Shown: in pieces, positions 4,884-42,164 of the stretch
Position numbering within the stretch: the stretch's first letter is position 1
How the letters are laid out: every line of letters begins with the position of its first letter
IMG/VR virus record: IMGVR_UViG_3300028534_000019
Span: 31,091-95,090 of that record
Source: a virus
Lineage: Duplodnaviria > Heunggongvirae > Uroviricota > Caudoviricetes
Reading direction: 5' to 3' (one strand)
DNA length: 64,000 bases
The notes under the pieces: generated by a model
Database searches by the model: none
Told to the model about the DNA's origin: nothing
The model's input: the letters and a program-made list of their open reading frames with translations, nothing else
Translations under genes and position numbers: made by a program

Positions 4884-5633
4884 ATGTATATACCAAGAAG
4901 AGAATTTGATGATGAACCAAAAATAATTATTTTTAGTGGTGCTGGATTGGATGCCCCATCAGGATTAAAAACTTTTAGGGGTTCTGATGGTTTATGGGAT
5001 AGCCACAAAATACAAGATATTTGTACTGAAAGTACTTGGAAACAAAATTTTGAAGAAGTTCATAATTTTTATAATGGTTTAAGAAATAAATTAGAAAAAG
5101 CACAACCAAATAAAGCACATTTAAAAATAAAAGAATTATATGAAAAGTACCCTGATAGTGTTCTAAATATTACAATGAATATATCAGACTTTTTTGAAAG
5201 GTTAGAAGTTCCAGTTCTTCATATTCACGGAGAACTTAAAAAAATGGAATGTTATGCTTGTGGTACTAAATGGGATATTGGGTATAAGCAGTGGGATATT
5301 GAAAAAGATAGGTGTCCTAAATGCAATAGTAGAAAAGGTGTGAAACCATCTATTGTATTTTTTGGTGGTCAAGCACCTATGTATAGCTACTTGTGGCGTG
5401 CTTTTGAGCATACTATGAATAAAGATACTATTGTGATTGTTATTGGTACTCAGGGTAATGTAGTGAATGTAGAAGAGAATTTAATAGGTACTCCTTGTAA
5501 GAAAATTCTTTGTAATATGGAAGCATCAGCAGATATTAATGTAAAAAAATGTGGTTTTGATAAGGTGTACTATGAAAGTATAGAAACAGCAATAGACAAA
5601 ATTATGGATGATATTGAAGAATGGAAAAAATAA
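4884..5633 (+). CDS. Sir2-family NAD-dependent deacylase / ADP-ribosyltransferase
   Basis: Sirtuin motifs FSGAGLDAPSGLKTFRGSDGLW and ITMNISDF...VLHIHGEL. Zn tetrad CYACG...CPKCN, then IVFFGG. Confidence 0.8.
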   Translation: MYIPRREFDDEPKIIIFSGAGLDAPSGLKTFRGSDGLWDSHKIQDICTESTWKQNFEEVHNFYNGLRNKLEKAQPNKAHLKIKELYEKYPDSVLNITMNISDFFERLEVPVLHIHGELKKMECYACGTKWDIGYKQWDIEKDRCPKCNSRKGVKPSIVFFGGQAPMYSYLWRAFEHTMNKDTIVIVIGTQGNVVNVEENLIGTPCKKILCNMEASADINVKKCGFDKVYYESIETAIDKIMDDIEEWKK

Positions 5634-6088
5634 AAATATTCACAAGTTACTATTCTAATATTAACAAAATCAGAGAGAATTATCCTGATTTTGTTTTAAT
5701 TTCAATTAGTGGTGGTTTGGAAAATAATATTATAACTTTAATAGATGATTGGGATAAAAGGTTAGCACCTAAAAAAGATTTCTTCTTAGAGTATAAAAAT
5801 TCAAAAGAAGGTTTACCACGAGAGATTAAATATGTAAAAGAATTTAATGATAAAGTTCTATATAAAGATAAAATAAAAATAATTATAAACTCTTGGTTAG
5901 AAAAATATCCAAACAAAACTATTGTAATGCTTTGTTATGAACATCCTAAAGATTTTTGTCATAGACAAATAGTAGCTAAAGAAATTGAAACTGTTTTTAA
6001 TGTTGATGTAAAAGAATTATTTTTTGAAAATTATGAAAGAATAGATTATAAAATGTTTCCTAAAGGCTTAGATGAAGATGAATGGTAA
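5621..6088 (+). CDS. DUF488-like protein (LCYEHPKDFCHRQIV signature), overlapping the Sir2 stop
   Basis: N-terminal IKIFTSYYS and C-terminal ...IVMLCYEHPKDFCHRQIVA resemble the DUF488 ALLCaE..CHR signature. Its start overlaps the Sir2 stop by 13 nt. Confidence 0.4.
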   Translation: MEKIKIFTSYYSNINKIRENYPDFVLISISGGLENNIITLIDDWDKRLAPKKDFFLEYKNSKEGLPREIKYVKEFNDKVLYKDKIKIIINSWLEKYPNKTIVMLCYEHPKDFCHRQIVAKEIETVFNVDVKELFFENYERIDYKMFPKGLDEDEW

Positions 6089-6165
6089 TTATTAATTTTT
6101 TATTTAATATTGTTTTAATCTAAATCATATTATAATTTCATCATATTTAAGGAAAAGGCTATAAT

Positions 6166-6639
6166 ATGAAAAAAGAATTAAAAATAGATATATTAGATAA
6201 TCTACAAAGAAATAGTGTTTGTGTTATTTTTAAACCAAGTGATAGTGTTTCACATATACTTATTTTGGAAGAATTAGTAAATAGAGTAGTATCAAGTGAA
6301 GTGATATTAAAAAGAGATACACTTGAGTATCTTAGAGATTCAGAAATAGAAATATATCCATTAGTTTATATGTCAAAAAATGATTTTGATGAATTACCTC
6401 AAAATGTCAAAGCAAGAGTTAGTTGTGTTGATGGTGAGATGTTATTTGAAAGTGTAGAAGATGATAGACAATTATCTAAAACAACCTTTTCTATACAAAT
6501 AGAAGATAAAGAATATACAAAAGATGAACTTTTAAAAGAAGTTGTTATGAGAATGAGTAATTTAGAAGATGGTACTTATGCTAGTACACCTGATGATTAT
6601 GATGACTTTTATAGTTCTTACAGTTTTAAAAAGATTTAA
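6166..6639 (+). CDS. hypothetical acidic protein
   Basis: 157-aa ORF with a TATAAT plus AAGGAAAAGG upstream. Confidence 0.5.
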   Translation: MKKELKIDILDNLQRNSVCVIFKPSDSVSHILILEELVNRVVSSEVILKRDTLEYLRDSEIEIYPLVYMSKNDFDELPQNVKARVSCVDGEMLFESVEDDRQLSKTTFSIQIEDKEYTKDELLKEVVMRMSNLEDGTYASTPDDYDDFYSSYSFKKI

Positions 6640-6954: not shown

Positions 6955-7157
6955 TGTTTGTTGATAAAATTTTAGAAAATGGTGTAGAGTGTGTTTTTAT
7001 TACACACTCCAACAAAATAAGAAAGGCATATAGATATAAAAATATTATTTGGAAAATATATGCTAGTGGTGGTTATTCTGAAGTTTTTGAAAGTGAAATT
7101 CAATTCTCAGGAACAAGAGAAGAAGCAAAACAGAAATATCCTGAATTATTTTTTTAA
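6954..7157 (+). CDS. small protein with C-terminal KYPELFF tag
   Basis: 67 aa. Ends ...KQKYPELFF-stop. One of seven YPE-tag proteins in the window. Confidence 0.5.
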   Translation: MFVDKILENGVECVFITHSNKIRKAYRYKNIIWKIYASGGYSEVFESEIQFSGTREEAKQKYPELFF

Positions 7158-8795: not shown

Positions 8796-9316
8796 TGGTT
8801 TTAAATTTTTATGGCGGGCCGGGTATTGGTAAAAGTACAAAAGCATCAGAGTTATTTTTTAGATGTAAACAACAAAACTTACAGGTTGAATTAATACACG
8901 AGTTTGCTAAAGATATGGTTTATTCTCAATCTATGGAAATATTGAAAGACCAATATTATGTAGGTGCTAATCAACATCATAGGGTGTGGAGAGTTCATAA
9001 CTATTACTTACAACAAGGTTTTAAAGAGGATGAATTTCTTATAATAACTGATAGTCCTATTTTGTTGGGTGCGGCTTATACTGATGATGATAAATTAAGA
9101 GATTTTATTTTTGAAACTTCAGAAAGATATAATAATATTAATATTATGCTAACAAGAAAATTTAATTACCAAGAAGAGGGAAGAAACCAAGATTTAAAAG
9201 GTGCTATTGAGATTGATAAAAAAGTTTTAGATTTATTAAATAAAACTTCTTATATAGAAACAAATGATACAGATAAAATTTTATCTCTAATTAAGGAAAA
9301 AATGAGTACAATATAA
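8795..9316 (+). CDS. P-loop NTPase / nucleotide kinase-like
   Basis: Walker A FYGGPGIGKST. Kinase-sized at 173 aa. Confidence 0.6.
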   Translation: MVLNFYGGPGIGKSTKASELFFRCKQQNLQVELIHEFAKDMVYSQSMEILKDQYYVGANQHHRVWRVHNYYLQQGFKEDEFLIITDSPILLGAAYTDDDKLRDFIFETSERYNNINIMLTRKFNYQEEGRNQDLKGAIEIDKKVLDLLNKTSYIETNDTDKILSLIKEKMSTI

Positions 9317-13872: not shown

Positions 13873-13925
13873 AAATTAAGTATTTTTACTGTATAATAAA
13901 ATCTATTAAAAATAAAAGGTTATAT

Positions 13926-14552
13926 ATGAGAAAGAAATTTAATGAAGATAAGAACAAAACTTATGAGAGTAAAGAACACTCTTTACATAAAAAGAAGATT
14001 GTAAAAAATCAAGACTATACAAAATTTAGGTTTTTTATAGGAACTTTTGATAATCAAACACCTAAGTTTCATTTAATATTAAATGATTTATATGATTCTA
14101 ATGAAAAAGATGAATTAGAATTAAGAATTATGTCACCAGTTGGATTGGTTATTGAATGTCAGCAAGTTGTGAATATAATGAATAACAAATTTAATGGTAG
14201 AACAACAGCATATATTGAAAGCCACGCTAGTTCAGCAGGTGCTATTGTTTTTGCTAATGCTGATAAAAGAGTTATATATGAAAATTCAAGAATAATGTTT
14301 CACAACTATTCAGGTGGTTATGGTGGTAAATTTCAAGATATTAAAGATAGATTAGATTTTGATGAAAAACATATTATTTCTTTTTTGAGTGTTGCTAAAC
14401 AATTCTTAAATAAAAAAGAATGGAAACAAATGGTAAATGGAAAAAACTTTTGGTTTGATGCTTCTGATATGTTAAAAAGAAATATAGCAACTCATATCAT
14501 AGTAGATGGTAAAGAGATGACTAAGAAAGAATATAAAAAATATAAAAAATAA
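13926..14552 (+). CDS. ClpP-like (S14) serine protease
   Basis: RIMSPVGLV...TTAYIESHASSAGAIVFANADKRV...SRIMFHN...DIKDRLDFD aligns with the ClpP Ser/His/Asp region. Confidence 0.7.
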   Translation: MRKKFNEDKNKTYESKEHSLHKKKIVKNQDYTKFRFFIGTFDNQTPKFHLILNDLYDSNEKDELELRIMSPVGLVIECQQVVNIMNNKFNGRTTAYIESHASSAGAIVFANADKRVIYENSRIMFHNYSGGYGGKFQDIKDRLDFDEKHIISFLSVAKQFLNKKEWKQMVNGKNFWFDASDMLKRNIATHIIVDGKEMTKKEYKKYKK

Positions 14553-16601: not shown

Positions 16602-17051
16602 ATGATATATTCAAATAATAAAAAAGTAAAACACGACTATGAAATAATTGAAACATTTGAGGCAGGTGTTGTTTTGAGCGGTCCGCAAGTAAAATCAATT
16701 AGAAAAGGTTCTTTAAGCCTTAAAGGTTCTTATGTTAGTCTTGATGATGGTGTTTTATCATTAAAACAATACTCACTTGCTAGACCTGATTATTTGGATG
16801 CTTTTAGTTCTTTTGATGATAAACCAATAAAATTTTTACTCAAAAAAAGAGAGATTAAAAAATTACAAAAAAAGATTCAAGAAAAAGGTTTAACATTATC
16901 TATAACAAAAGTTTATCAACCTGAAAATACTAGATTTATTAAGGCTGAGTTAGTTCTTGTGAGAGGTAAAAAACTATATGATAAAAGAGAAGATTTAAAA
17001 AAGAAAACACAAGAAATGGATATGAAAAAGGCTATAAAATATGATAGATAA
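16602..17051 (+). CDS. smpB: SmpB (SsrA-binding protein)
   Basis: KHDYEIIETFEAGVVLSGPQVKSIRKGSLSLKGSYVSLDDG...KKREIKKL...GLTLSITKVY aligns along the length of E. coli SmpB. Confidence 0.85.
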   Translation: MIYSNNKKVKHDYEIIETFEAGVVLSGPQVKSIRKGSLSLKGSYVSLDDGVLSLKQYSLARPDYLDAFSSFDDKPIKFLLKKREIKKLQKKIQEKGLTLSITKVYQPENTRFIKAELVLVRGKKLYDKREDLKKKTQEMDMKKAIKYDR

Positions 17052-18056: not shown

Positions 18057-18569
18057 ATGGTAGAAGAAAATAATTTTAGAGAAACAAAAACACATATTTA
18101 TTTTTGGGGTAGTATCTATTCTCAATGGTACACTTCAAAAAACCAATTCAAAGAAGATGGATTTATTTTTCAAAATGCTGAACAGTATATGATGATGAAA
18201 AAAGCAGAACTTTTTAAAGATTATGATGTATTAGAAAAAATGAAACAAACAAGTAATCCAAAGGTATTAAAAAAATTGGGTAGAGAAATTAAAGGTTTTG
18301 ATGAAGATATTTGGAATTTTAATAAAATGGATATTGTTGAAAGAGGGAATTTTTTAAAGTTCTCTCAAAATCCTAAGTTATTAGAAAAACTTATAGCACA
18401 CAAAAATAAACATATAGTAGAAGCATCACCTTATGATAAGATTTGGGGTATTGGGCTTCATTGGTCAGATGATAAGGTATTAAATGAAAGTACTTGGAAT
18501 GGTGAAAATCTTTTAGGTAAATGTATTATGTCAGCAAGAGATAAAATTTTAAATCCAAAATCTATATAA
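18057..18569 (+). CDS. NADAR (YbiA/DUF1768) domain protein
   Basis: FQNAEQYMMMKKAELF, KKLGREIKGFDEDIW, KFSQNPKL and VEASPYDKIWGIG match the NADAR signature. Confidence 0.75.
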   Translation: MVEENNFRETKTHIYFWGSIYSQWYTSKNQFKEDGFIFQNAEQYMMMKKAELFKDYDVLEKMKQTSNPKVLKKLGREIKGFDEDIWNFNKMDIVERGNFLKFSQNPKLLEKLIAHKNKHIVEASPYDKIWGIGLHWSDDKVLNESTWNGENLLGKCIMSARDKILNPKSI

Positions 18570-18639: not shown

Positions 18640-20490
18640 ATGGCAGTTATTGGTATAGATTTAGGAACGACAAATAGTGCTGTTTCAGTTTATGAAGTAG
18701 GGGAATTTAAAATTATTCCTAATGCTGAGGGTAAAAATACAACACCTAGTATTGTAGCATTTACAGATAAAGGGGATGTATTAGTAGGGGAATCAGCAAA
18801 AAGACAAGCAGTCACAAACCCTGAAAAAACTATTGAAGCAATTAAAAGAATTATGGGTATGCAATTTAATGAACCTAGATGTAAAGAGGCTCAAGAAAAA
18901 GTACAATATAAAATTGTAGATAAAAATGGTTTGGCCGCTGTTGATGTTGATGGTAAGATTTATACACCACAAGAAATTTCAGCTAAAATCCTTACAAAAC
19001 TAAAAGATGATGCAGAAGCATTTATTGGTAAAGAAGTTACAGATGCTGTAATTACAGTTCCAGCATACTTTAATGATGCTCAGAGAAAGGCGACACAAGA
19101 GGCAGGCGTTATTGCAGGGCTTAATGTACTAAGAATTATTAATGAACCTACTTCGGCCGCTCTTGCTTATGGTTTGGACAAAAAAGGTGAGGAAAATATT
19201 CTTGTTTATGATTTTGGTGGTGGTACTTTTGATGTATCTGTATTAGAAATTGGAGATGGTACTTTTGAAGTTCTTTCAACTGATGGTAATGCTTTCTTAG
19301 GTGGTAAAGACTTTGACCAAATTTTAGTTAATTATATTGCTGAATATTTTAAAGAGAAACAGGGTGTTGATTTAAGAAATGATAAAATGGCACTTCAAAG
19401 ATTATATGATGCTTCAGAAAATGCTAAAAAAGAGTTATCAAGTGTTGTAGAAACTGAAATTAACTTACCATTTATTACTATGACAGAAGCCGGCCCGCAG
19501 CATCTTGTTTTAAAAATTTCAAGAGGTAAATTTGAGGGGTTAGTACAAAATCTTGTAGATGAAACTATTGAACATATTACAACAGCATTACAAGACGCTG
19601 GTTTAAGTGTAGATGATATTAGTGAATTGATTATGGTTGGTGGCTCAACAAGAATACCTTTAGTACAAGAGGCAGTTTCAAAGTATTTTAAAGGTAAAAC
19701 TCTTAATAAATCTGTTAATCCTGATGAAGTTGTAGCCGCTGGTGCTTCAATTCAAGGTGGTGTATTAACAGGAGATGTAAAAGATGTTCTTCTTCTTGAT
19801 GTTACACCATTATCACTTGGTATTGAAACTATGGGTGGTATTGCTACTAAAATCATCCCAAAAGGTACAACTATTCCTGTTAAAAAATCAGAAATCTTTA
19901 GTACAGCAGTTGATAATCAACCAGCAGTTAGTATTGTAGTAGTACAAGGTGAAGCAAAATTAGCAGAAGATAATAAATCTTTAGGACAATTTAATCTTGA
20001 GGGTATAACACCAGCTAAAAAAGGTGTACCACAAATTGAAGTTAATTTTGATGTTGATTCTAATGGTGTTTTGAGTGTATCAGCTATTGATAAAGGAACA
20101 GGTAAAGAACAGAAAATAACAATTACAGGTTCGACAGGTTTAAGTGAAGAAGAAATTAGAAAGATGATTGATGATGCTGAAAAACAAAATCAAGAAAAGG
20201 CTGAAAAAATTAAAGCAATTGAAGCAAAAAATGAATTGGATGCTACTCTTTCAAGAATTAAAAACTTTAATGATGAAGAAAAAAATGAAGTGCTATCAGC
20301 TAAAATTTCTGATGTTGAAGAATATGTAAAAGAAGATAGAACAGCAGAAGAAATTAGAAAAATTAGAGATGAACTTGAAGAAGTTTATTTAAAAGCATTT
20401 GAAGAGAAATCAAAAAGAAATGAAGGTGCTGAGGTAAAAGAAAGCACTGAAAATAATGATGATGTTATTGATGCTGAAATTGAAGAATAA
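18640..20490 (+). CDS. dnaK: Hsp70 chaperone DnaK (canonical-looking)
   Basis: [32 protein letters not shown] and the substrate-binding domain [14 protein letters not shown]. Ends DVIDAEIEE. Confidence 0.95.
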
Positions 20491-20501
20491 AAGAGGAAAA
20501 A

Positions 20502-21305
20502 TTGAAAAAATTATATAAAATTCTTGAAATTGAAGAAACTTCTACAACAGTAGAAATAAAAAAAGCATATAGAAAATTAGCTAAAAAATACCACCCTGAT
20601 GTTTGTAAAGAAGAGGGTGGTGAAGATAAGTTTAAAGAAATTAATAGAGCATATGAAGTTCTAAGCAATCCACAAGAAAAACAAAAGTATGATAGATTTG
20701 GTGATGAAATGTATGAAAAAATGGGGTCAGGTGGTGGAAGACCTAATCCAAATGCTGATGAGTTTGCAGAAGCAATGGCATCATTTTTCAACCAAAAGGG
20801 AAATCCCCGACAAGGTAATCCTTTTGGTATGGGTGGTAATCCTTTTATTCATACAACAATTCAAGCATATATTTCGATAGAAGATTTATTTAAAGGTACT
20901 TCTATACAATTACAAGATGGTACTAAAGTAAAAATACCACCTAGAACAATACCGGGTAGTAGGGTAAGAGTTAAAGGCAAAGGTATGTCAGATGGTAAAA
21001 ATACAGGAGATTTATTTATTATCATAACACCAAAAAATAATGATAAAGAATTTGTTGAGAATGATACTATTATAAAGATTATCAAAATTGATTTAGTTAG
21101 TATGATTTTTGGAAATGAAATAAAATATAATCATTATGGTAAAGATTTAATTGTTACTGTTCCAAAAAATACAAAGCCCGGTGACTTTGTACAAATTCCC
21201 AATCAGGGCTTAGGTACTCAGGGTTCATTAATTTTACATTTAGATTTAGAATTACCAAAAGCAGAAGATTTAGATGAAGAAAAAGTAAAAGAATTATTTA
21301 ATTAA
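20502..21305 (+). CDS. J-domain co-chaperone (class B-like, no Zn-finger), TTG start
   Basis: J domain with YRKLAKKYHPD...KFKEINRAYEVLSNPQEKQKYDRFG, followed by a G-rich linker and a C-terminal client-binding domain. aagagga RBS 5 nt before TTG. Confidence 0.85.
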   Translation: MKKLYKILEIEETSTTVEIKKAYRKLAKKYHPDVCKEEGGEDKFKEINRAYEVLSNPQEKQKYDRFGDEMYEKMGSGGGRPNPNADEFAEAMASFFNQKGNPRQGNPFGMGGNPFIHTTIQAYISIEDLFKGTSIQLQDGTKVKIPPRTIPGSRVRVKGKGMSDGKNTGDLFIIITPKNNDKEFVENDTIIKIIKIDLVSMIFGNEIKYNHYGKDLIVTVPKNTKPGDFVQIPNQGLGTQGSLILHLDLELPKAEDLDEEKVKELFN

Positions 21306-21364
21306 TATACAATTAAGGTTTCTTTTGCTATAATTTCATCATATATAAACTAAAAGGATTCAAA

Positions 21365-24100: not shown

Positions 24101-24380
24101 ATATTCAAAAGATGAAACAATAAAAACATTCTTAACACAAAATAAAGCAACTATAATTTATGATGGTATGTATAAACTTGTTTTTGATGATGGTGGTGTT
24201 ATGATAACAACTAAAACTTCTGATGAGATGTTTTCATTCTTAATTGGTTATAAGTATGCTAGTATGAATTATGAAAAGATTTTAGAGAGAATTAATACTG
24301 AACACAATAATATGGTAAAACAGTATGATGAACAAATGAACATTATGTCATCTATGGTTGAAGATAAAGAAGAAAATTAA
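24093..24380 (+). CDS. hypothetical protein
   Basis: 95-aa ORF. Confidence 0.4.
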   Translation: MNRYSKDETIKTFLTQNKATIIYDGMYKLVFDDGGVMITTKTSDEMFSFLIGYKYASMNYEKILERINTEHNNMVKQYDEQMNIMSSMVEDKEEN

Positions 24381-24447
24381 TTTTAATTTTTAATTTTCTT
24401 TTAATATTAAAATGCTATAATTACATAATTAAAAAAGAAGGATATTT

Positions 24448-25548
24448 ATGTTAGTTCAAAATAAAAAAGTTCCAAAAGAAACATTAGAGTTATTGGACTC
24501 TAAAATAGAAGAATTTGAAAAAAATACAAATTCAACTGTTTTATATATTACAATTACAGGTTCTGTTCTTTATGGTACTGATAATGAAAATAGTGATTTA
24601 GATTTTAAAGGTATTTTTATGCCTAATCTAAAAGAAGTGCTTATTGGTAATACACCTAGTGCTTTTGTTTTTAATTCAAATACAAAAGATAAAAACTCTT
24701 CTGATGATATTGATTTAACATTACACCCTGTAAATGACTTCTTTAATCATCTTAGAAAATCTGAAACAGGTGCTGTTGATTTACTTTTTAGTATGTTTAG
24801 AGAAGATACTATTGTTTTTGATGATGGTATTTTCACGAACTTTATGAAGAAAAATTATCAAAAGTTTAGAAATTCTAATATGAAAAGTTTTATCGGTTAT
24901 GCTGTTGGTCAAACTAAAAAATTTGGGATTAAAGGTGCTAGATATGAAGAGTTAGATGTTTTTTATAAAGATTGTGTTAATTATTTTAATCTTGCTCCAA
25001 AAGAAAATAAATTAGGTGAATATTGGGATTTTCTTGAACTAAAAGCCCAAGGTAAAAAATATATTAAGTTTACAAAAGCAGAAGGTGCTAGAAGAAATGA
25101 TGGTAGTAGTAATATCATTGATTATATTTCTGTTCTTGGTAAACTATATCATAAAGATGTAACAGTAGGTTATTTTTTAGAAAGAGTTTCTAAATTTTAT
25201 AATCAATTTGGTAATAGAACTAAAACAGTAGCTAAAACTGAATCAAAAACAGATTGGAAAGCAATGAGCCACGCCCTTAGAGTAGCTATGGAAGTTAAAG
25301 AGTTACTTCAATTTGGTTTTATTAAATTTCCATTGACTTATGCTGATGAGATTAAAGAAGTTAAATTTGGTAACAGAGAAGAACAAGAAACATTAGATAA
25401 AATTAGAGATGTATTGGGTGAAGTTGATACAATATTAGAAAATATTGATAAAGATAACTTTCCTTGTGAAATGAGTGAAGAATTACTTAAAAAATTAAAA
25501 TGGGAAGTAATTCTTCTATATAAAGAGTTTTTAGATTTAGGTTTTTAA
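24448..25548 (+). CDS. nucleotidyltransferase-fold protein (Pol-beta superfamily)
   Basis: TGSVLYGTDNENSDLDFKGIF (GS...DhD) and a downstream acidic SSDDIDLTL. Confidence 0.6.
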   Translation: MLVQNKKVPKETLELLDSKIEEFEKNTNSTVLYITITGSVLYGTDNENSDLDFKGIFMPNLKEVLIGNTPSAFVFNSNTKDKNSSDDIDLTLHPVNDFFNHLRKSETGAVDLLFSMFREDTIVFDDGIFTNFMKKNYQKFRNSNMKSFIGYAVGQTKKFGIKGARYEELDVFYKDCVNYFNLAPKENKLGEYWDFLELKAQGKKYIKFTKAEGARRNDGSSNIIDYISVLGKLYHKDVTVGYFLERVSKFYNQFGNRTKTVAKTESKTDWKAMSHALRVAMEVKELLQFGFIKFPLTYADEIKEVKFGNREEQETLDKIRDVLGEVDTILENIDKDNFPCEMSEELLKKLKWEVILLYKEFLDLGF

Positions 25549-25549
25549 A

Positions 25550-26602
25550 ATGGATTTTGATTTTGATGAAATTGTTGCTACAAGAACTTATGTTGATTGT
25601 TATTGTAATGATAATATAAGTTCAGATGATATTAAAGGTATATTAAATCCTAATTTTATTAATAAAACATTAAATGAAATAGATAATTTTTTATATGGTG
25701 GTTTTAATTATTTTAGTAAAAGAGTTCCATTCACTTTAGCTGGTGGTTCTCTTCTTAGTTATTGTTCTTATTATATAGCTACAAAAAATGATTATGGTAA
25801 TCCAAAAAGTTATTTAGATTGGTTGGAATATTCAGGTAATTCTGATATTGATTTATTTTTTGAATGTGAGGAAGATTATATAAAAATGCTTGAAGCAGTA
25901 CAAAAAAATGGTTTTAGTAATTTATCACCTAAACCAAATGCTAAAAGTTTTTATAAAAAAAGAGGAAAAAATAAAAATACAATTTCAATAGATTTAGTAC
26001 ATAAAGATTATTCAGCACCACAAAAACTTATAGATAGATTTGATTTGAATAAGAGTAAAATTGCTATAAGTTCTTATGGCAATCTTTATATAGGTAATGA
26101 TTTTGATAATTATCTTTGTTTAAATCCATTAAATATAAATTATAATACTATATCAAGATTTAAAAAATATTCTATAACAAAACATATACAACCTTCATAT
26201 AAAACTTTACAAGAACTTGTACATATTTTCATTGATAAACAAGATGAAGTATATGAAAGTTTTTATAATGATGAAAAAAGAGATATACCTATGTATGGTG
26301 GGCTTGAAAATCTGATTACAATTATTGTAGATTGTAAAAAGTTATATAACATAGATTTAAAACTTAGTCGTGATGAGGTATTTAACTTATATTTAATATT
26401 GGAGAAACATTTTTCTGAAAAAGATAGATTAATTTCTTTTTTTACAAAAATAATTAATGAAGATAGTATTGATTATATACCTAAAATATATGAATTATTA
26501 TTACAACGACAAGATAGATTTTATGGAAAACAATTTGAAGATAATATGGATGAATCTATTAGAGATAAAGTTTTAGAAACATACCCTGAAATAATGTTTT
26601 AA
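25550..26602 (+). CDS. second nucleotidyltransferase-fold protein with C-terminal TYPEIMF tag
   Basis: LAGGSLLSY...GNSDIDLFFE (GGS...DhD). Ends ...VLETYPEIMF-stop. Confidence 0.5.
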   Translation: MDFDFDEIVATRTYVDCYCNDNISSDDIKGILNPNFINKTLNEIDNFLYGGFNYFSKRVPFTLAGGSLLSYCSYYIATKNDYGNPKSYLDWLEYSGNSDIDLFFECEEDYIKMLEAVQKNGFSNLSPKPNAKSFYKKRGKNKNTISIDLVHKDYSAPQKLIDRFDLNKSKIAISSYGNLYIGNDFDNYLCLNPLNINYNTISRFKKYSITKHIQPSYKTLQELVHIFIDKQDEVYESFYNDEKRDIPMYGGLENLITIIVDCKKLYNIDLKLSRDEVFNLYLILEKHFSEKDRLISFFTKIINEDSIDYIPKIYELLLQRQDRFYGKQFEDNMDESIRDKVLETYPEIMF

Positions 26603-30909: not shown

Positions 30910-31217
30910 TGTCAAAGCAATGGCTTAGTGAATTAATAGAACAGCCATATGAATGGTGTATTGAAACTGTTACAAAAGAGCCTGAATTACTAAAAAATAT
31001 AAAAGTACAAACACAAGAACTTTGTGAAATAGCATTTTATGAAGATTATAAAACAGCAAAATATATACATCAAGAATTTAGATTTAATGAGAGAATTTTA
31101 GCTATTGCTCGACAGCATAGTTTATTAAATAAAAGCATACCACAAGATATGCTTGAAAAAATAAATGAATATCCATATAATTACTTTGAAAAGAAATATC
31201 CTGAAATCTTTTTCTAA
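30909..31217 (+). CDS. small protein with C-terminal KYPEIFF tag
   Basis: 102 aa. Ends ...YFEKKYPEIFF-stop. Confidence 0.5.
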   Translation: MSKQWLSELIEQPYEWCIETVTKEPELLKNIKVQTQELCEIAFYEDYKTAKYIHQEFRFNERILAIARQHSLLNKSIPQDMLEKINEYPYNYFEKKYPEIFF

Positions 31218-31567: not shown

Positions 31568-32455
31568 ATGGATAAAGGTTTATTTGGAATTATTGGAGCA
31601 GGTGTATTAGTAGTTATGCTATTAATTTTAGGTGCTACATCAGTTTATACAGTTGATGAGGGTAAAGTTGGTATTGTAAAGACTTGGGGTAAAGCAGTAA
31701 AGCAAGTTAATCCCGGACTTCACTTCAAAATGCCTATTGCTGATGAGGTTGTAGAGATTGAGGTAAGAACAAGAAAAAATGTTGAAACTATGAGTATTGC
31801 TACAAGTGAGCAAATGGCGGCAAAAGCAACTGTTTCTATGAACTGGACTGTTAATAAAGCAAGTGTTTTAGAACTCTATAAGAAATATGGCTCACTTGAC
31901 CAATTTGAAAGTAGAATTTTAGACCCAAAACTTAGAGATGCCACAAAAGAGGGTATTGCTAAATTTACAGCAGAACAAAATATTAAGAACAGAGGTGTAA
32001 GCACACTCAAAGTTAAGGAATTATTTATTAACCAAATTAAAGGTTATCCTATTACTGTTAATGGTTTTCAAATTGAAGATATTCAATTAAGTAAAAAATA
32101 TCTTGCTTCAATTGATGCTAAACAAACAGCTAAAAATGAAAGAGATGCTGAAAAATTTAAACTTGAAAAACAAGCCCTTGAAGCACAAAGAGCAGTAAAT
32201 ACAGCAAATGCTGAAAGAGATGCCGCTAAAGCAAGAGCAGATGGTGTGGCTTATAAAATTGAAGCAGAAGCAAAAGCAAATGCTAAGAAAATTGCCCTTA
32301 TTGCTGGAGCAGAAGCAAAAGCAATTAAACAAAAAGCACAAGCACTTAAAAATAACCCTGCTATTATAGACTATATGAGAGCAGAAAAATGGAGTGGGAA
32401 TTATCCTACTACTATGATGGGTAGCAACCCAAACATTCTTATGAAATTAAAATAA
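31568..32455 (+). CDS. SPFH/band-7 (HflK/C-prohibitin-like) membrane protein
   Basis: N-terminal transmembrane segment, then VYTVDEGKVGIVKTWGKAVKQVNPGLHFKMP..., with an Ala/Lys-rich coiled-coil C-terminus. Confidence 0.8.
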   Translation: MDKGLFGIIGAGVLVVMLLILGATSVYTVDEGKVGIVKTWGKAVKQVNPGLHFKMPIADEVVEIEVRTRKNVETMSIATSEQMAAKATVSMNWTVNKASVLELYKKYGSLDQFESRILDPKLRDATKEGIAKFTAEQNIKNRGVSTLKVKELFINQIKGYPITVNGFQIEDIQLSKKYLASIDAKQTAKNERDAEKFKLEKQALEAQRAVNTANAERDAAKARADGVAYKIEAEAKANAKKIALIAGAEAKAIKQKAQALKNNPAIIDYMRAEKWSGNYPTTMMGSNPNILMKLK

Positions 32456-33464: not shown

Positions 33465-34577
33465 ATGAAAATTACAGAGATTAAACCTATTTTACAGTTT
33501 TCTAAAGATGCTGATGATGCTGTAATCATTGAGGGTAAACACGGTATTGGTAAATCAGAAATAGTTAAACAATATTGTTCGGAAAATGGTTATTTTTATA
33601 CTGTTTTATTTTTAAGTCATCAAGAAGTTGGTGATTTGATTGGTATGCCTTTTGAAAAAAATGGTATTCAATATTGGTCTAAACCATCTTGGTTAGTAAG
33701 AATGGAAGAAGCATCAGCAAGAGGGGAACATAATGTTTTACTCTTAGATGAGTTAAACCGAGCCCAAACTGATGTATTACAAAGTGCTTTACAACTTGTT
33801 TTAGAAAGACAAATTCACGAGCATTTCTTACCTACTACTGATGGTGTAAGAAGTCAAGTAATTGCTTGTATTAACCCTGATGATGATTTATATCAAGTAA
33901 TTACACTTGACCCAGCACTAAAAGATAGATTTTTACATTTAAAAACAAGTGAAGATTTACAAGGATGGGTTAAATGGGGTGGTGAAAAAGGAGTACCTGA
34001 TGTTGTTATTCATTACTTGCTTGAAAATGAAAATGATTTTCATAGTACAAATGAAGATGGTGAGGGTGCTACACCAAGAAGTTGGTATAAATTAAGTCAA
34101 TTCTTGAAAATATTTGAAGATAAAGAAGTTGAAGAATTTCAACTTTGGGAGATTATTAAAGGTAAAGTAGGTTCAAGTATCGGTAGCAAATTCCTTAACT
34201 TTTATAATACTCATAGTACATTTATTGATGTTACAAAAATTAAAAAGTTTTTAAATAAATATAAAAGAGATATTTCTGATTTACCTGAAATTGGTGCTGA
34301 ATTAGCTAGTTATATTAAAGGTCTTGAACAAGTAACTAAAGTAGAACAAGTTAATAAACTATATCACGACAGTATTGAAAAAATTAAAGATACTAAAGTT
34401 ACTATGGATGATGAAGATATTTTCACTATTTTTGCTATGCTTCACGCTTTTGAAATAGAAGTAACAACATCAGTTATGAAGCAATGGAAAAATGAAAGTG
34501 TGAGTGATTTTATGGATTTTGTTAAAAAAGATAATAAAGAACTCATTACATTAATAACAAGAAGATTAAAAACATAA
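33465..34577 (+). CDS. MoxR-family AAA+ ATPase
   Basis: Walker A EGKHGIGKSE. MoxR signature LLLDELNRAQTDVLQSALQLVLERQI (cf. DEINRAxxKTQSALLEAMQE). Confidence 0.8.
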   Translation: MKITEIKPILQFSKDADDAVIIEGKHGIGKSEIVKQYCSENGYFYTVLFLSHQEVGDLIGMPFEKNGIQYWSKPSWLVRMEEASARGEHNVLLLDELNRAQTDVLQSALQLVLERQIHEHFLPTTDGVRSQVIACINPDDDLYQVITLDPALKDRFLHLKTSEDLQGWVKWGGEKGVPDVVIHYLLENENDFHSTNEDGEGATPRSWYKLSQFLKIFEDKEVEEFQLWEIIKGKVGSSIGSKFLNFYNTHSTFIDVTKIKKFLNKYKRDISDLPEIGAELASYIKGLEQVTKVEQVNKLYHDSIEKIKDTKVTMDDEDIFTIFAMLHAFEIEVTTSVMKQWKNESVSDFMDFVKKDNKELITLITRRLKT

Positions 34578-35219: not shown

Positions 35220-36473
35220 ATGGCTAAGAGTAATTTAAGAAGTGAAATTATTGAGGAAACTGTTATAAATGCCTTTTCAAATAAGAGAGATGGTTTTGTA
35301 AATGAGTATGCTTTTTATTTTCATATGTTTGCTATGTGTAATATAATTGAAACAGAAGATGTAGAGTTAGCAGGTGTTAATTTTATTAAAAAATGGAATT
35401 TATATATAAATCCTAAAGAGTTTCAAAAATATTCACTTAATCAAAGACTTGGTATAATTAAGCACGAAATGCTTCACATAATTTTTAACCATTTAGTAAG
35501 AATGGAAAACAAAGAAAAAGAAGAATGGAATTTAGCTACTGATTGTGCTATTAATCAAATGATTAGAAGTGCTGATTTACCTAAAGAAAGAGTAGATACA
35601 AAAAGTCTAAGTGAATATTTGGGTGTTGATGTACCTACTAATCAAAGTGCTGATTATTATTATGATTTAATTATGAAAAATAAAAAACAACAAAATAAAT
35701 GTGGTGGCAGTTCATCAGGTGGTTGTCCACAACAAGGTGATGGTAGTGGTTCTGATGAAAGTGATGGTTTAGGTACATTAGATGACCATAATAAATGGGA
35801 AGAGTCGGAAAGTATGGATGGTATAGAAGAACTTATTGAATCTTCTGTTAAAGATATGGTTTCAAAAGCCCAAGACAAAAACAGAGGTCTAACACCACAA
35901 GAACTTAATGAAATTATTGAGATTATTTTTGGTAAATCTGTTGTTAATTGGAAAAGTGTTTTAAGAAATATTGTTTCTAATAGAAGAGTTAATAAAAGAT
36001 ATACAATTCAAAAAAGGAATAGAAGATTCCCAAAAAGAATAGAAATTAGAGGTACAACAAAAGAGAAAAAATTTGATATTGTTGTTATACTTGATATTTC
36101 AGGTAGTATGAATGATAGTGAAATTCAAGATGGTTTAAATGAAATTAAAGCAATTGCTAAATTAACAAAATCTAGTATTAAGATAATTCAAGTCGATACA
36201 ACTGTTAAAGAAGTTCAAGAGTTTACAGCAAAGACAAAAACATTTAATAGACTTGGTTGTGGTGGTACAATGATGTATCCAGCACTTCAATATATAAAAG
36301 ATAACAAAATAGATATGGATTGTGGCATTTTGATTTCAGATATGATGATTGAAAGTTTAGATACTTGGGAACAAAAAGGTTTAGCACCAAAATGTAAATT
36401 TATCTTTTTGAATACTAGTAACCACTCACTAAAAACAACAACAAGAAAAAACTATATGTTTTTTGATTTATAA
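35220..36473 (+). CDS. VWA-domain protein with N-terminal HExxH putative metallopeptidase domain (DUF2201-like, MoxR partner)
   Basis: IKHEMLHIIFNH (HExxH), a Gly/Ser linker, then a VWA MIDAS motif VVILDISGSMND. Confidence 0.75.
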   Translation: MAKSNLRSEIIEETVINAFSNKRDGFVNEYAFYFHMFAMCNIIETEDVELAGVNFIKKWNLYINPKEFQKYSLNQRLGIIKHEMLHIIFNHLVRMENKEKEEWNLATDCAINQMIRSADLPKERVDTKSLSEYLGVDVPTNQSADYYYDLIMKNKKQQNKCGGSSSGGCPQQGDGSGSDESDGLGTLDDHNKWEESESMDGIEELIESSVKDMVSKAQDKNRGLTPQELNEIIEIIFGKSVVNWKSVLRNIVSNRRVNKRYTIQKRNRRFPKRIEIRGTTKEKKFDIVVILDISGSMNDSEIQDGLNEIKAIAKLTKSSIKIIQVDTTVKEVQEFTAKTKTFNRLGCGGTMMYPALQYIKDNKIDMDCGILISDMMIESLDTWEQKGLAPKCKFIFLNTSNHSLKTTTRKNYMFFDL

Positions 36474-38174: not shown

Positions 38175-39122
38175 ATGTTTGTTGTTAGAAAATTGCTTGA
38201 AGAAGCAAATGATAATTATTTTAAAAGACTTAATGATAATGAAATATCTAAAAATGATATAGAAATTTATGAAACTATTTTCCCTATTAGAAAATTAGAT
38301 GCTAGAAAATTAGATGATTTTGTTTCTAAAACTAACATTGATAATCTATTAATTAAAATTTCAAAACTAGATAATTCTTATATTAAAACTTTACTTAATG
38401 ATGTAATACTGATATTATCTAATGAAAAACCAAACTCAAGTCTAGCAGAAAATCTAAATCTTGTAAAAATGAGAATTGAAATAGATTTAGATGATGATGT
38501 TAAAAATTTTATATATGCTGAGGATATTATAGAAGTTTTAAAAACATTACCTAAAAGAACATTTATTGTAGGTGGTTTTGTTAGAGATTCAATAGCTAAT
38601 AGAAGTGCTAATGATATGGATTTTTGTACTGAAAATAGCTATGAAGATGTAAAAAAAGTTTTTGAAAAAAATAAAAACTTCTCTATTAAAGAAACAGGTA
38701 AACATTTTTCTGTTTTGATTGTTACAGATAAAAATAATCTTGAATCTTTTGAAATTGCTCAATTAAGAAAAGACAAAGATAATGGTGGTGCTGAAATAGG
38801 AACTATTATAGATGATGCTGAAAGAAGAGATTTTATGAATAGTGCTATTTACTTTGATATTAATTCTAAAGTATTAATTGACCCTCACGGTCAATCAATA
38901 GATGATAGTGTCAGAAATGTAATTAGATTTATTGGCAAACCTGAGGATAGAATAAAAGAAGACCCTCTAAGGGTTCTAAGATTTTATAGATTTATGGGTA
39001 GAGGTTGGGTAGCTGATTCAAAATCATTAAAAGCAGTGAGAACTAATTTTAGTTTAATGATGAATGAAACATCTCATAATAGAGTTATGAGTGAAATTGA
39101 AAAAATGGTAATGGGAGCATAA
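38175..39122 (+). CDS. class-II tRNA nucleotidyltransferase (CCA-adding / poly(A) polymerase) head+neck, truncated
   Basis: Head motif GGFVRDSIANRSANDMDFCT, motif B ERRDFMNSAIYFD, then LIDPHGQSIDDSVRNVIRFIG and EDPLRVLRFYRF. At 315 aa it lacks the body and tail. Confidence 0.8.
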   Translation: MFVVRKLLEEANDNYFKRLNDNEISKNDIEIYETIFPIRKLDARKLDDFVSKTNIDNLLIKISKLDNSYIKTLLNDVILILSNEKPNSSLAENLNLVKMRIEIDLDDDVKNFIYAEDIIEVLKTLPKRTFIVGGFVRDSIANRSANDMDFCTENSYEDVKKVFEKNKNFSIKETGKHFSVLIVTDKNNLESFEIAQLRKDKDNGGAEIGTIIDDAERRDFMNSAIYFDINSKVLIDPHGQSIDDSVRNVIRFIGKPEDRIKEDPLRVLRFYRFMGRGWVADSKSLKAVRTNFSLMMNETSHNRVMSEIEKMVMGA

Positions 39123-39843: not shown

Positions 39844-41706
39844 ATGAGTCAAGATATTGTTTTAGGTATTGATTTAGGTACAACAATGAGTGTAATATCA
39901 TATTACGACCCCCACGAAAAAGCAGTCAAACTTATTAAAGATAAAGAACAAAAAGTTTTATTTCCATCAGTTGTTGCTTTGGTTGATGGTAAATGGGAAG
40001 TTGGTGAAAGGGCTTTAGAACAATATGAAGTAACTCCTGAATTAACAATAAGAAATATTAAAAGACTTATGGGAACACCATTTTATTCTGATGGATGTAA
40101 ACAAGCAAAAAATATAATCAGTTCAAAAGTTGTTAATATGGATGGTATGGCAGGTGTTGAGTTGATGGGTAAACAATATTCACCTGAAGAAATTTCCTCA
40201 ATCATTCTTAGTTTTTTAAAAGATACAGCAGAAAAACATTTTGAAAGATTGAAATTAGATTATAATATTAGTGGTGTTGTTATAACAGTTCCAGCATACT
40301 TCAATCATAACCAAAGAACAGCCACAAGGCGTGCTGGAGAGGTAGCTGGACTAAATGTATTAAGGATAGTTAATGAGCCGACAGCGGCTTCTCTTGCTTA
40401 TGGTTTACAAAATAAAGAAGATGGTAAAATAGTAGCAGTTGATTTAGGTGGTGGTACATTTGATGTATCAGTAATTGATATTTCTGATAGTACATATAAA
40501 GTTCTAAGTACAAATGGTAACTCTTATTTTGGTGGAGAAGACCTAAATAATAAAATTTTTAAAAATTTAGTAGATTTTATAAAGGCTAATATTGGAATAG
40601 ATATTACACTAAGTGATAGGTCACAAGCAATATTAAATGAAGAAATAGAGAGAGTAAAACAAGAACTTTCTTTTAATAAATCTTCTTACCTAAATGCTAA
40701 TGATATTTTTGAAAAAGACCCTTATAATTTTTCAGCTAAGATTACAAGAGAAGAATTAGAAGAAATTCTTGATTTTGGAGAAGTTAAAAAACACATAATT
40801 AAGGCTATTGAAGATGCTGATGTAAAATATGAAGAAATACAAGATGTTGTTTTAGTTGGTGGTTCAACAAGAATACCTATGTTGAAAAAAATAGTTTCTA
40901 AATTATTTGATGGTAGAGAACTTTATGATAAATTAAACCCTGATGAGGTAGTTTCAATAGGTGCTTCTATTCAGGGTGCTATTATTTCAGGTTATATTGA
41001 TGATATTTTGTTAATTGATGTTGCTTCTTTATCTTTGGGTATAAAATTAGATGACGAAACATTTTTACCAATTATTAAAAAAGGAACAGTATTACCAGCA
41101 GAATTTAATGATAATGTTACAACTTCTGAGAATGACCAAAAATTCTTAGTTTTTAATATAGCCCAAGGTGAAGCAGAAAAATTTAGTGATAATATTTTCT
41201 TAGGTAACTTTATTTTTGAGGGTTTTGATACCGGACCGGCAGGTTATCCAAACATAACTGTAACAATAAAACAAAATTTAGATGGTATTATAGAAGTATT
41301 AGTTAAAGATGAAAATTCTAAAGCAAAAGAAACTTATCTCATTGAGGGTGAATATAATATTTCACAAAGTAGAATACAAGAATTAACAGCTAAAAATGAA
41401 GAAAGTAATGAAGAAAACAAAGAAGAAAATGAAAGAAAAAGATGTTTATCGAGAATAAAATATAAATTGTTTGAAATTGAAAGATATGCTGAAAAATTTG
41501 ATTCTGAGAGAATGAGAGAATTATATAAAAATGGTTTGGATGCCATAAAAGAAGATAAACTAAAAGCAAGTGATTTATCAGTTATAGAAAATTATCTATC
41601 AAGTAGATATTTTAGTGTTATGGCTTCACACCAAAAAGAAATAGAAAACAAATTAGAAGAAAATGCTAGAAATTATGCTAAAAAACTTAGAAAAAAGGAA
41701 AAATAA
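39844..41706 (+). CDS. second, divergent Hsp70/DnaK paralogue
   Basis: [36 protein letters not shown] and substrate-binding DVASLSLGIKLDD. 620 aa. Confidence 0.9.
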   Translation: MSQDIVLGIDLGTTMSVISYYDPHEKAVKLIKDKEQKVLFPSVVALVDGKWEVGERALEQYEVTPELTIRNIKRLMGTPFYSDGCKQAKNIISSKVVNMDGMAGVELMGKQYSPEEISSIILSFLKDTAEKHFERLKLDYNISGVVITVPAYFNHNQRTATRRAGEVAGLNVLRIVNEPTAASLAYGLQNKEDGKIVAVDLGGGTFDVSVIDISDSTYKVLSTNGNSYFGGEDLNNKIFKNLVDFIKANIGIDITLSDRSQAILNEEIERVKQELSFNKSSYLNANDIFEKDPYNFSAKITREELEEILDFGEVKKHIIKAIEDADVKYEEIQDVVLVGGSTRIPMLKKIVSKLFDGRELYDKLNPDEVVSIGASIQGAIISGYIDDILLIDVASLSLGIKLDDETFLPIIKKGTVLPAEFNDNVTTSENDQKFLVFNIAQGEAEKFSDNIFLGNFIFEGFDTGPAGYPNITVTIKQNLDGIIEVLVKDENSKAKETYLIEGEYNISQSRIQELTAKNEESNEENKEENERKRCLSRIKYKLFEIERYAEKFDSERMRELYKNGLDAIKEDKLKASDLSVIENYLSSRYFSVMASHQKEIENKLEENARNYAKKLRKKEK

Positions 41707-42164
41707 TGTTTTATGATAGAGATACAATGGATATGTTATTAGAAAGTTCTTATAGAACTTTCAGATATTTATTTAGACAAGGTAAAAAATTTAGTATAGT
41801 TATTTGGAATAATAATGATTGGAATCATCCATTACCACAAGAAACTATGAAAGCCCACCCTGAGCATATTTTGCTTGATATTAATAGCCAAGAAATAGAA
41901 AGAAGTGAAATCTTAGAAGATGGTTCTGTATTACTTAGATTAATTTTTGGTGAAACACATTATGAAAAAGTTATATTACCAAAAGATATTATAGCAATTT
42001 TAGATGGAAGTGGTAGAGCAATACATTCAAATAACTTTAAGGATGTAGCAAAAGAAGAATTACTTGATAGTGTATTTAGTTTAAATGATTTATATGAAAC
42101 TTTATTAGCATCAGGTGTAGAAGATGAAAATATTATAAAATCAATGGAAGCATTCGGATTATGA
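41706..42164 (+). CDS. hypothetical protein
   Basis: 152-aa ORF. Its ATG overlaps the DnaK2 stop. Confidence 0.5.
   Translation: MFYDRDTMDMLLESSYRTFRYLFRQGKKFSIVIWNNNDWNHPLPQETMKAHPEHILLDINSQEIERSEILEDGSVLLRLIFGETHYEKVILPKDIIAILDGSGRAIHSNNFKDVAKEELLDSVFSLNDLYETLLASGVEDENIIKSMEAFGL

Follow-up and report, generated by a model that had tools for sequence, protein, structure and literature searches.

A T4-like phage encodes a canonical DnaK–DnaJ operon and a second, divergent Hsp70 next to its tmRNA

The 64,000-nucleotide stretch of viral DNA analysed here, called the window (positions 31,091 to 95,090 of the IMG/VR record IMGVR_UViG_3300028534_000019), is part of the genome of a T4-like myovirus and encodes two Hsp70 chaperones. 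The first, DnaK1, forms a two-gene operon with a class-B J-domain protein (18640–21305) and has the features of a canonical DnaK. The second, Hsp70-2 (39844–41706), lies beside a phage tmRNA and is much more diverged. We consider it probable that DnaK1 and its J protein act as a canonical chaperone pair, and that Hsp70-2 is an ATPase-competent Hsp70 that functions independently of an exchange factor. A first-pass annotation of the window had described a canonical 616-residue DnaK, a class-B-like J protein with a TTG start, a second full-length Hsp70 of 620 residues directly after the tmRNA, and no recognisable GrpE. All of these descriptions hold, and the proposed sub-functionalisation of the two Hsp70s is supported by which residues differ between them. 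The explanations offered for the missing GrpE and for the role of the second Hsp70 are revised below.

DnaK1 and its J-domain protein

DnaK1 (616 amino acids; 18640–20490, + strand) matches the Pfam HSP70 family (PF00012) with a score of 767 bits, compared with a gathering threshold of 20.6, and exceeds the cut-offs of both NCBIfam DnaK equivalogs, NF001413 and TIGR02350 (870.9 versus 648 and 846.8 versus 822.55, respectively). An AAGGAG Shine-Dalgarno sequence is positioned upstream of the gene. In DnaK, the J domain docks through electrostatic contacts with E206, D211, E217, and D477, its HPD motif contacts R167, Q378, L391, and P419, and the substrate arch is made up of M404 and A429 (Mayer 2021, PMC8215388). 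DnaK1 retains the ATPase residues D8, K70, E171, D194, T199, and D201, as well as K55, R56, E267, the G32 loop, H295, M404, and A429; E264 is conservatively replaced by aspartate. Apart from E264D, every catalytic, GrpE-contact, J-contact, and arch residue that was checked is canonical. The linker has the sequence VLLLD, and the protein carries the acidic DnaK-type C-terminal motif. Since the cleft salt bridges and the residues associated with GrpE are retained, DnaK1 would be expected to run a normal, J-stimulated and GrpE-dependent cycle, and its likely role is to provide general folding help to phage proteins.

The J-domain protein (267 amino acids; 20502–21305, + strand) begins with a TTG codon located 11 nt past the dnaK stop codon and preceded by an AGAGGA Shine-Dalgarno sequence. 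The TTG start is backed by homologues whose N-termini, MKNLYEILGV or MKDLYKTLEI, align with it. The protein matches the Pfam families DnaJ (E 2e-24) and DnaJ_C (E 1e-16), and none of the zinc-finger families of Pfam. It contains a single cysteine, an HPD motif at residues 31–33, and a G/F-rich stretch, delimited by eye, at approximately residues 67–115. The closest full-length NCBIfam models are those of zinc-finger-less DnaJ (PRK14299) and CbpA, both matched below their cut-offs, and the protein is therefore class-B-like. The basic face of its J domain is conserved, with K20, R24, K25, and K45 corresponding to R22, K26, R27, and K48 of the E. coli protein, and these residues match DnaK1. A second J domain was not found by hidden Markov model (HMM) and HPD scans of approximately 75 kb, which comprise the window and its flanks.

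Inheritance of the chaperone module and loss of GrpE

The closest relatives of DnaK1 are DnaKs of other phages and elements, with sequence identities of 72–74%, followed by unnamed metagenomic proteins down to approximately 69%, whereas Sulfurimonas and other named Campylobacterota DnaKs are 67–69% identical to it. A phylogeny of the Hsp70s had been proposed in the first-pass annotation as a way to distinguish a recent capture from an ancient lineage. In our neighbour-joining analysis, with support calculated on splits, 13 phage and element DnaKs, one of them DnaK1, group together with 81% bootstrap support, and this clade is nested within the Campylobacterota with 77% support. The contigs that encode the DnaKs of this clade are AT-rich (21–31% GC) and phage-like. 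Two of them, L094 and L095, are IMG/VR viral contigs. Contig L002 encodes a large terminase subunit (TerL) that is 47% identical to that of the window, together with T4 gp30.3, Thg1, and lysozyme, and L012 contains a 10-tRNA array, T4 RNA ligase, and NADAR. L002 and L095 also encode ClpP homologues close to their chaperone genes.

The order of genes around dnaK differs between the sister contigs and the window. In L095 and L016 the order is NADAR–Hsp20–DnaK–GrpE–DnaJ, in L002 and L094 it is Hsp20–DnaK–GrpE–DnaJ, and in L003, L010, and L017 it is Hsp20–DnaK–GrpE. The window contains NADAR–DnaK–DnaJ, where the NADAR-domain gene (18057–18569, + strand; Pfam NADAR, E 4e-45) is the conserved upstream neighbour of the module. 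Compared with the DnaJ encoded after GrpE in the sister phages, the window J protein has an identity of 35–38%. The comparison of gene orders demonstrates that the chaperone module is old in the phage lineage, and that Hsp20 and GrpE were lost from it here. DnaK1 was thus inherited within the phage lineage rather than newly acquired.

The GrpEs of the sister phages form their own clade of short proteins, mostly 152–178 residues in length. Searches of the window by tblastn, in which two GrpEs of phages and two Hsp20s served as queries, identified neither GrpE nor Hsp20; no match to GrpE had an E value below 0.6. An HMM built from 55 GrpE sequences, for which positive controls scored E values of 5e-62 and 7e-52, gave a best E value of 0.08 against six-frame open reading frames (ORFs) of the window, approximately 9.4 kb upstream of it, and 1.5 kb downstream of it, the flanks being taken from the European Nucleotide Archive (ENA) strain. 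When metagenomes were scanned for phage-type GrpE, none of the best 80 of 310 relatives was located on the JGI contig that carries Hsp70-2. The absence of GrpE noted in the first-pass annotation thus holds for the window and for the flanks that were searched; it reflects a secondary loss from the Hsp20–DnaK–GrpE–DnaJ module conserved in the sister phages and not a primitive state. The two explanations that had been offered for it, reliance on host GrpE and independence of nucleotide exchange factors, apply to different proteins: DnaK1 is of the GrpE type, whereas Hsp70-2 lacks the DnaK-type exchange features. The exchange factor of DnaK1 is probably host GrpE, as judged from its retained residues, or it might be a phage GrpE encoded in the unsampled part of the genome.

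In two of the sister contigs dnaK is interrupted by an insertion of 1.2–1.3 kb, which is located after approximately residue 192 in L016 (1135–4233) and after approximately residue 221 in L095 (4563–7702). The insertions are possibly introns, inteins, or homing elements. The DnaK of some Lak phage records is likewise in two pieces.

Sequence and predicted structure of Hsp70-2

Hsp70-2 (620 amino acids; 39844–41706, + strand) matches Pfam HSP70 with a score of 472 bits, above the same gathering threshold of 20.6, and remains below the cut-offs of the two DnaK equivalogs (467.6 versus 648 and 449 versus 822.55) and of the HscA equivalog (386 versus 708.55 bits). Its start codon is preceded by a Shine-Dalgarno sequence. 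The occurrence of ORFs of 616 and 620 codons in DNA with 26% GC excludes chance as the origin of either Hsp70 gene. Hsp70-2 is 40% identical to DnaK1. In a search of 5.8 billion proteins, its best matches other than itself were Campylobacterota DnaKs of the ordinary type, with identities of 38–43%, which indicates that Hsp70-2 descends from DnaK and not from the HscA or HscC families. These best matches are 64–69% identical to DnaK1 and are thus not hidden orthologues of Hsp70-2. The phage records contain no relative of Hsp70-2 closer than 37% identity. At 1.14 substitutions per site, the branch leading to Hsp70-2 is almost three times as long as the mean pairwise distance of 0.41. Hsp70-2 is a lineage-specific, fast-evolved protein derived from a Campylobacterota-type DnaK, which could have originated either by duplication of the phage gene or by a second capture.

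The structure of Hsp70-2 predicted by AlphaFold2 (AF2) comprises a nucleotide-binding domain (NBD), a β-sandwich of the substrate-binding domain (SBDβ), and a helical lid, and has a mean predicted local distance difference test (pLDDT) score of 81. The scores are mostly 80–96 in the NBD, approximately 72 in the SBDβ, and 67–83 in the lid. The identity of Hsp70-2 to canonical DnaKs differs between regions: approximately 50% in lobe I, 25–31% in subdomain IIB, 31–36% in the SBDβ, and 13–16% in the lid.

The residues of Hsp70-2 were compared with those of E. coli DnaK in an alignment whose E. coli sequence passed position checks at K70, E171, D194, T199, D201, R167, D393, M404, A429, and V436. 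Hsp70-2 retains D8, T11, T12, K70, R71, P143, R151, E171, D194, G196–198, T199, and D201, and also R167, N170, T173, Q378, L391, and P419; its linker has the sequence ILLID. The first-pass annotation had named inactivating substitutions in the nucleotide-binding motifs of both Hsp70s as an outcome that would speak against it, and we found that both proteins keep their nucleotide-binding and catalytic residues. Nevertheless, Hsp70-2 departs from the consensus in 48 of the 164 alignment columns in which 36 canonical DnaKs do not vary, although the core catalytic residues are kept. The residues of the nucleotide-cleft bridges are changed (K55L, R56E), as are V59 and L257 (V59E, L257R). The GrpE loop and signature contain the substitutions G32Q, T36F, G292D, and H295N and a two-residue deletion at positions 288–289. 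In the substrate arch, M404 is replaced by aspartate and A429 by serine, V436 is changed to leucine, and the lid latch carries R467A and D540K. The acidic J-docking residues E217 and D477 are both swapped for lysine. The acidic C-terminal motif is missing, and the protein has a basic tail, KKLRKKEK, instead.

HscA lacks the salt bridges K55–E267 and R56–E264 and releases ADP 700-fold faster, and the contacts with GrpE are not conserved in HscA and HscC (PMC8215388). Taken with these assignments, the residue pattern of Hsp70-2 makes it look like an active ATPase with a cleft that does not depend on GrpE. The catalytic residues, the linker, and the residues contacting HPD suggest that Hsp70-2 is ATPase-competent and that its allostery is intact. 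Its nucleotide cleft may be open, so that intrinsic exchange would be fast and GrpE would not be needed, in a mode like that of HscA and HscC. The changed client site points to an altered and probably narrow range of clients, and the changed docking surface to a weaker binding of canonical J domains.

Several observations weigh against this interpretation. The independence of nucleotide exchange factors, the ATPase competence, and the narrowing of the client range are all read from residues alone. The residues N13 and D148 near the nucleotide site, which are invariant in canonical DnaKs, are replaced by methionine and histidine, respectively, and the activity of Hsp70-2 could thus be reduced. 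Its placement in the neighbour-joining trees has a support of 25–44% and varies among bootstraps, and the diagnostic columns that bear on its origin from a duplicated phage DnaK or a separate capture are split 2, 3, and 5. The approximately 75 kb that were searched, in which neither GrpE nor Hsp20 was found, belong to a genome that is probably longer than 150 kb, so that GrpE, Hsp20, and a second J protein could lie elsewhere, and the metagenome scan for GrpE covered the best 80 of 310 relatives. Finally, the adjacency of Hsp70-2 to an SspB-like gene, described below, does not prove that the two are a functional pair, because the SspB-like gene is found in the relative L013 without an Hsp70 or tmRNA.

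The gene for Hsp70-2 was also recovered in independent assemblies. It is near-identical in the ENA strain, with 32 nucleotide differences, and is identical in the Logan contig over the 1674 nt that are covered. For comparison, DnaK1 of the ENA strain differs in one residue. The window and the ENA strain (L096) differ at 38 positions over 13.6 kb, and 31 of these differences fall within the last 85 codons of Hsp70-2 (41450–41706). According to a manual count, 17 of these codons have an amino-acid replacement and eight have synonymous changes only; the remainder of the gene contains one difference, which is synonymous. The ENA contig ends approximately 80 nt beyond the variable stretch, which may represent a recombination boundary or a hypervariable lid and tail.

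The tmRNA, the SspB-like gene, and YPE-tailed proteins

The phage tmRNA (39452–39772, + strand), identified by ARAGORN, matches Rfam RF00023 with a score of 90.8 bits, compared with a gathering threshold of 47, and an E value of 6e-36. Hsp70-2 starts 71 nt past it. The tag encoded by the tmRNA is ANNTDYTGNTVLSA, which ends in LSA and not in LAA. The NNTDY core of the tag is similar to that of Helicobacter-type tags, which would fit a Campylobacterota host.

The stop codon of Hsp70-2 overlaps by 1 nt the ATG of the downstream gene (TAATG; 41706–42164, + strand), and the ORF after that overlaps in turn via ATGA. The downstream gene encodes a protein of 152 residues with a predicted SspB-like fold. 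The AF2 model calculated with an alignment of the family, which has 63 representative homologues, has a pLDDT of 93.4. The 19 best Foldseek matches of the model in the Protein Data Bank (PDB) are all SspB or its orthologues, with a probability of 1.00 and template modelling (TM) scores of 0.53–0.63 normalised by target. The protein has no match passing the thresholds in Pfam, NCBIfam, or PHROGs, the Pfam SspB family (PF04386) matched one of 57 members of the family, weakly (E 0.007), and a profile search of the family against PDB sequences gave no matches. As the sequence searches provided nothing usable, the likeness to SspB comes from the comparison of folds alone. The C-terminal region of the family is helical and contains a conserved KSxNAFxKNN motif. 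The Hsp70-2 gene is tightly coupled to this SspB-like gene and lies beside the phage tmRNA.

Loci of the SspB-like family were searched for with a 12-sequence alignment. The IMG/VR relative L013 is syntenic with this part of the window and encodes RlaP, an actin-like protein, Thy1, a CCA/poly(A) polymerase, and dCMP deaminase in a similar order. It has an SspB-like gene (6001–6441), which neither an Hsp70 gene nor a tmRNA adjoins. This arrangement indicates that the SspB-like gene is the older resident, and that the tmRNA and Hsp70-2 were added in the lineage of the window.

The window also encodes SmpB, the protein partner of tmRNA (16602–17051, + strand), and a ClpP-family protease (13926–14552, + strand); the former was assigned from a precomputed Pfam SmpB match on the near-identical ENA contig, and the latter from a precomputed match to Pfam CLP_protease. 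No ClpX was seen in the window. A MoxR-type AAA+ ATPase (33465–34577, + strand) and its metallopeptidase–VWA partner (35220–36473, + strand) form a chaperone-like pair that matches Pfam AAA_5, DUF2201_N, and DUF2201, and such a pair has been described for some jumbo phages (PMC7824862). With these genes and that of an SPFH protein, the phage is unusually rich in functions of protein quality control.

Seven proteins encoded on the + strand, ranging from approximately 65 to 350 residues in length, share a C-terminal tail of the form [KE]YPE[ILY]xF. Their ORFs end at positions 7157, 8423, 18041, 26602, 31217, 33183, and 34802, and the tails are KYPEIIF, TYPEIMF, KYPELFF, EYPEYYF, EYPELIF, KYPEIFF, and LYPELKF. 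A BLAST comparison of six of the proteins, which did not include the one from the ORF ending at 7157, identified nothing else that they have in common. The YPE tripeptide is C-terminal in seven of its eight occurrences in + strand ORFs. The tails named in the first-pass annotation, which had proposed the proteins bearing them as candidate clients, are thus borne out by the sequence. Among the other loci that were compared, excluding the flanks of the phage itself, one such tail was found, DKYPEVFI in L094.

Alternative roles of Hsp70-2

Hsp70-2 could be a component of a phage trans-translation and degradation module, together with the SspB-like adaptor, tmRNA, SmpB, and ClpP; we regard this as the strongest of the alternatives, though an improbable one. 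Hsp70-2 would then hold or hand over tmRNA-tagged chains, or the seven YPExxF-tailed proteins, by binding a fixed motif, in analogy to the recognition of LPPVK in IscU by HscA. The idea draws on the succession of tmRNA, 71-nt gap, Hsp70-2, SspB-like gene, and ORF67 with overlapping coding junctions, on the predicted SspB fold, on the presence of SmpB and ClpP in the same window, and on the remodelled substrate arch and pocket. The occurrence of the tail on seven otherwise unrelated proteins of the window, and its near absence from loci of relatives that lack Hsp70-2, with one case among the other loci compared, are also in line with it. However, L013 keeps its SspB-like gene without an adjacent Hsp70 or tmRNA, ClpX was not found in the window, and the co-occurrence of the tails with Hsp70-2 comes from one genome and partial loci. 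A bolder form of the idea, and a slightly more doubtful one, is that Hsp70-2 is a dedicated, exchange-factor-independent viral Hsp70 that reads the [KE]YPE[ILY]xF-COOH tail on at least seven unrelated phage proteins, either alone or together with the SspB-like adaptor and the tmRNA and ClpP set. If this were true, the phage would encode a 'tag and reader' system with which to sort or hold its own proteins or to degrade them at defined times.

The very long branch of Hsp70-2, its departures from invariant columns, which include N13M and D148H, and the clustering of strain differences in its last 85 codons, of which 17 carry replacements and eight synonymous changes only, could alternatively be signs of a decaying or ATPase-dead copy that has drifted after duplication and, if it acts at all, is a passive holdase or distracts host J proteins or defence sensors as a decoy. 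We consider this unlikely. The 620-codon ORF is intact in DNA with 26% GC and has a Shine-Dalgarno sequence, the catalytic residues (the set from D8 to D201, with P143, R151, and R167) and the linker are all kept, and the single strain difference outside the last 85 codons is synonymous. Furthermore, the fold of Hsp70-2 is modelled with confidence, and the defence-system models gave no matches to any protein that was tested.

A role for one of the Hsp70s in virion assembly or as a virion-associated chaperone, in the style of closterovirus Hsp70h, had been put forward in the first-pass annotation. T4-type capsids and tails need chaperones, and structural genes share the window with the two Hsp70s. 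A T4 late-promoter-like octamer, TATAAATA, is located 24–38 nt upstream of the start codons of nine genes, most of them structural, such as those for the neck and baseplate (sites at 9312, 10383, 11716, 14575, 42946, 47940, 49655, 53948, and others). The octamer is absent before either Hsp70 gene, where there are only TATAAT-like elements; this pattern argues weakly against a role in late virion assembly. In addition, both Hsp70 genes are located among genes of nucleotide-metabolism and RNA-repair type, and the sister phages pair DnaK with Hsp20 and GrpE, which constitutes a stress-type module. The closterovirus-like role is thus unsupported, and we consider it very unlikely.

Phage identity and independent assemblies

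The window encodes TerL, a ClpP-family protease, a T4 neck protein, SmpB, gp15, gp19, and baseplate proteins, with gp25 and gp6 near its end, and the major capsid protein gp23, gp32, and RNase H are encoded upstream. T4-type genes flank both Hsp70 loci. TerL is 39–41% identical to those of Vibrio and Campylobacter T4-like phages, and 2594 phage records match it; no close DNA match to the window was found among 50,697 phage records. The phage comes from a hydrothermal-vent metagenome, and its host probably belongs to the vent Campylobacterota. The GC content is 22–30% throughout the window (26% overall), and the Hsp70 genes are not outliers. Near-identical DNA is present in a 56.8-kb ENA contig from an independent assembly, which covers both Hsp70 loci. 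The gene order of the window, with the CCA-adding enzyme, ORF76, and Hsp70-2, recurs in an independent Logan contig, and a JGI metagenome contig also holds Hsp70-2, which is 100% identical.

As the first-pass annotation had argued, the region is phage DNA: the 67–69% identity of DnaK1 to Sulfurimonas and other Campylobacterota DnaKs could suggest host DNA that was mis-assembled onto the phage or captured very recently, but this is excluded for practical purposes by the same gene order in the ENA contig (both loci) and the Logan contig (Hsp70-2 locus), the GC content of the Hsp70 genes, which equals that of the genome, the position of DnaK1 within a phage and element clade whose chaperone module and phage neighbours are conserved even though TerL is only 47% identical between these phages, and the lack of any bacterial DnaK that is more than 69% identical to DnaK1.

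Comparison with known systems

The DnaK1–DnaJ pair resembles the bacterial DnaK–DnaJ–GrpE system. DnaK1 passes the DnaK equivalogs and keeps the functional residues that were checked, the J domain of the phage protein is canonical and has the basic surface used for docking on E206, E217, and D477, and the sister phages place GrpE between dnaK and dnaJ. Unlike the bacterial system, the pair is encoded by a T4-like phage, its J protein is of class B and short (267 residues), and the module lacks GrpE and Hsp20.

The first-pass annotation had stated that phages normally borrow host chaperones, which is overstated. Moraphages have been reported to encode DnaK, DnaJ, and Hsp20, and there is evidence that these genes were captured from the host phylum (PMC12619734); J proteins occur sporadically in jumbo phages (PMC7824862). 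Lak and other megaphage records also contain DnaK homologues, with one Hsp70 place per record, and both Hsp70s of the window match the PHROGs Hsp70 family phrog_22485. The window shares with the moraphages, Lak phages, and megaphages a phage-borne Hsp70 from the host phylum, often accompanied by a J protein and Hsp20; these phages, however, belong to other lineages and infect other hosts, and none has a relative of Hsp70-2 with more than 37% identity. Of the 50,697 GenBank phage records, 49 match DnaK1, and none of these is T4-like. A phage dnaK–dnaJ operon is therefore already known in kind and is new for T4-like phages. The J-domain protein Rki of the T4-related phage RB43 is reported to act on host DnaK (PMC3486835, as cited in PMC12619734). 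Whereas phages with such proteins recruit host DnaK, the J protein of the window shares its operon with a phage DnaK and has a complete C-terminal domain for client binding.

Hsp70-2 appears similar to HscA and HscC in its predicted mode of action, and is a member of neither family. It is approximately 40% identical to DnaK and is thus about as distant from it as HscA, it lacks both cleft salt bridges, the GrpE contacts, and the DnaK C-terminal motif, and its arch is changed. Its assignment as HscA was rejected, as it failed the cut-off, has no N-terminal extension of approximately 17 residues, and has a signature at positions 290–295 that is altered and not deleted. The hallmarks of HscC are a length of 550–580 residues, a deletion of residues 76–101, an insertion in L1,2, and a shortened helix B (PMC8215388). 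Hsp70-2 was rejected as HscC because it has 620 residues, and neither the deletion of 76–101 nor the L1,2 insertion. No partner of the HscB, IscU, or DjlC type was found in the approximately 75 kb, which encode a single J protein. We found no precedent described for the orphan second Hsp70.

SspB is the ClpXP adaptor for ssrA-tagged proteins, and a phage-encoded SspB has one reported precedent, in the T4-like Pseudomonas phage pf16 (PMC5587285). The SspB-like protein of the window has the same predicted fold and is encoded beside a phage tmRNA; it differs from SspB in that a helical KSxNAFxKNN C-terminus replaces the ClpX-binding tail of the E. coli protein, and in that it lacks clear membership of the Pfam family by sequence.

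The T4-like lineage thus includes members with a full, lineage-inherited Hsp70 system. The window provides a natural experiment within this lineage, in which GrpE and Hsp20 were lost, and an orphan Hsp70 without exchange-factor features was gained. If Hsp70-2 is active, specialised Hsp70s that work without an exchange factor would have arisen from a generalist DnaK by a third independent route, in addition to those of HscA and HscC, and Hsp70-2 would be the first such specialised Hsp70 from a virus of bacteria. The tmRNA, the SspB-like gene, and the YPExxF tails provide concrete hypotheses about the clients of Hsp70-2.

Other features of the window and of related contigs

A scan of the AT-rich DNA for generic σ70 promoters and terminators gave 51 sites compared with 52 expected, and thus no signal. 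Several non-structural genes are associated with extended –10 elements of the TGnTATAAT type, for example in the segments 21306–21364, 24101–24447, and 13873–13925.

The window has a set of genes with a flavour of RNA repair and counter-defence, which includes SIR2 (4884–5633), the RNA-repair nucleotidyltransferase RlaP (24448–25548), a weakly Gad2-like protein with a YPE tail (25550–26602), and a CCA-adding or poly(A) polymerase-type enzyme (38175–39122). It also encodes an SPFH/Band 7 protein (31568–32455).

Among the contigs with an Hsp20–DnaK–GrpE module, L010 (ENA ERZ27262685 k141_387955, 124 kb) and L003/L004 (65 and 153 kb) are large elements with 21–23% GC. L010 also encodes a Toprim protein of 1785 residues, MutS, two SET-domain proteins, GGDEF, and MatE, and L003 contains capsule-export and ABC transporter genes. 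These elements are candidates for huge phages, plasmids, or reduced cells.

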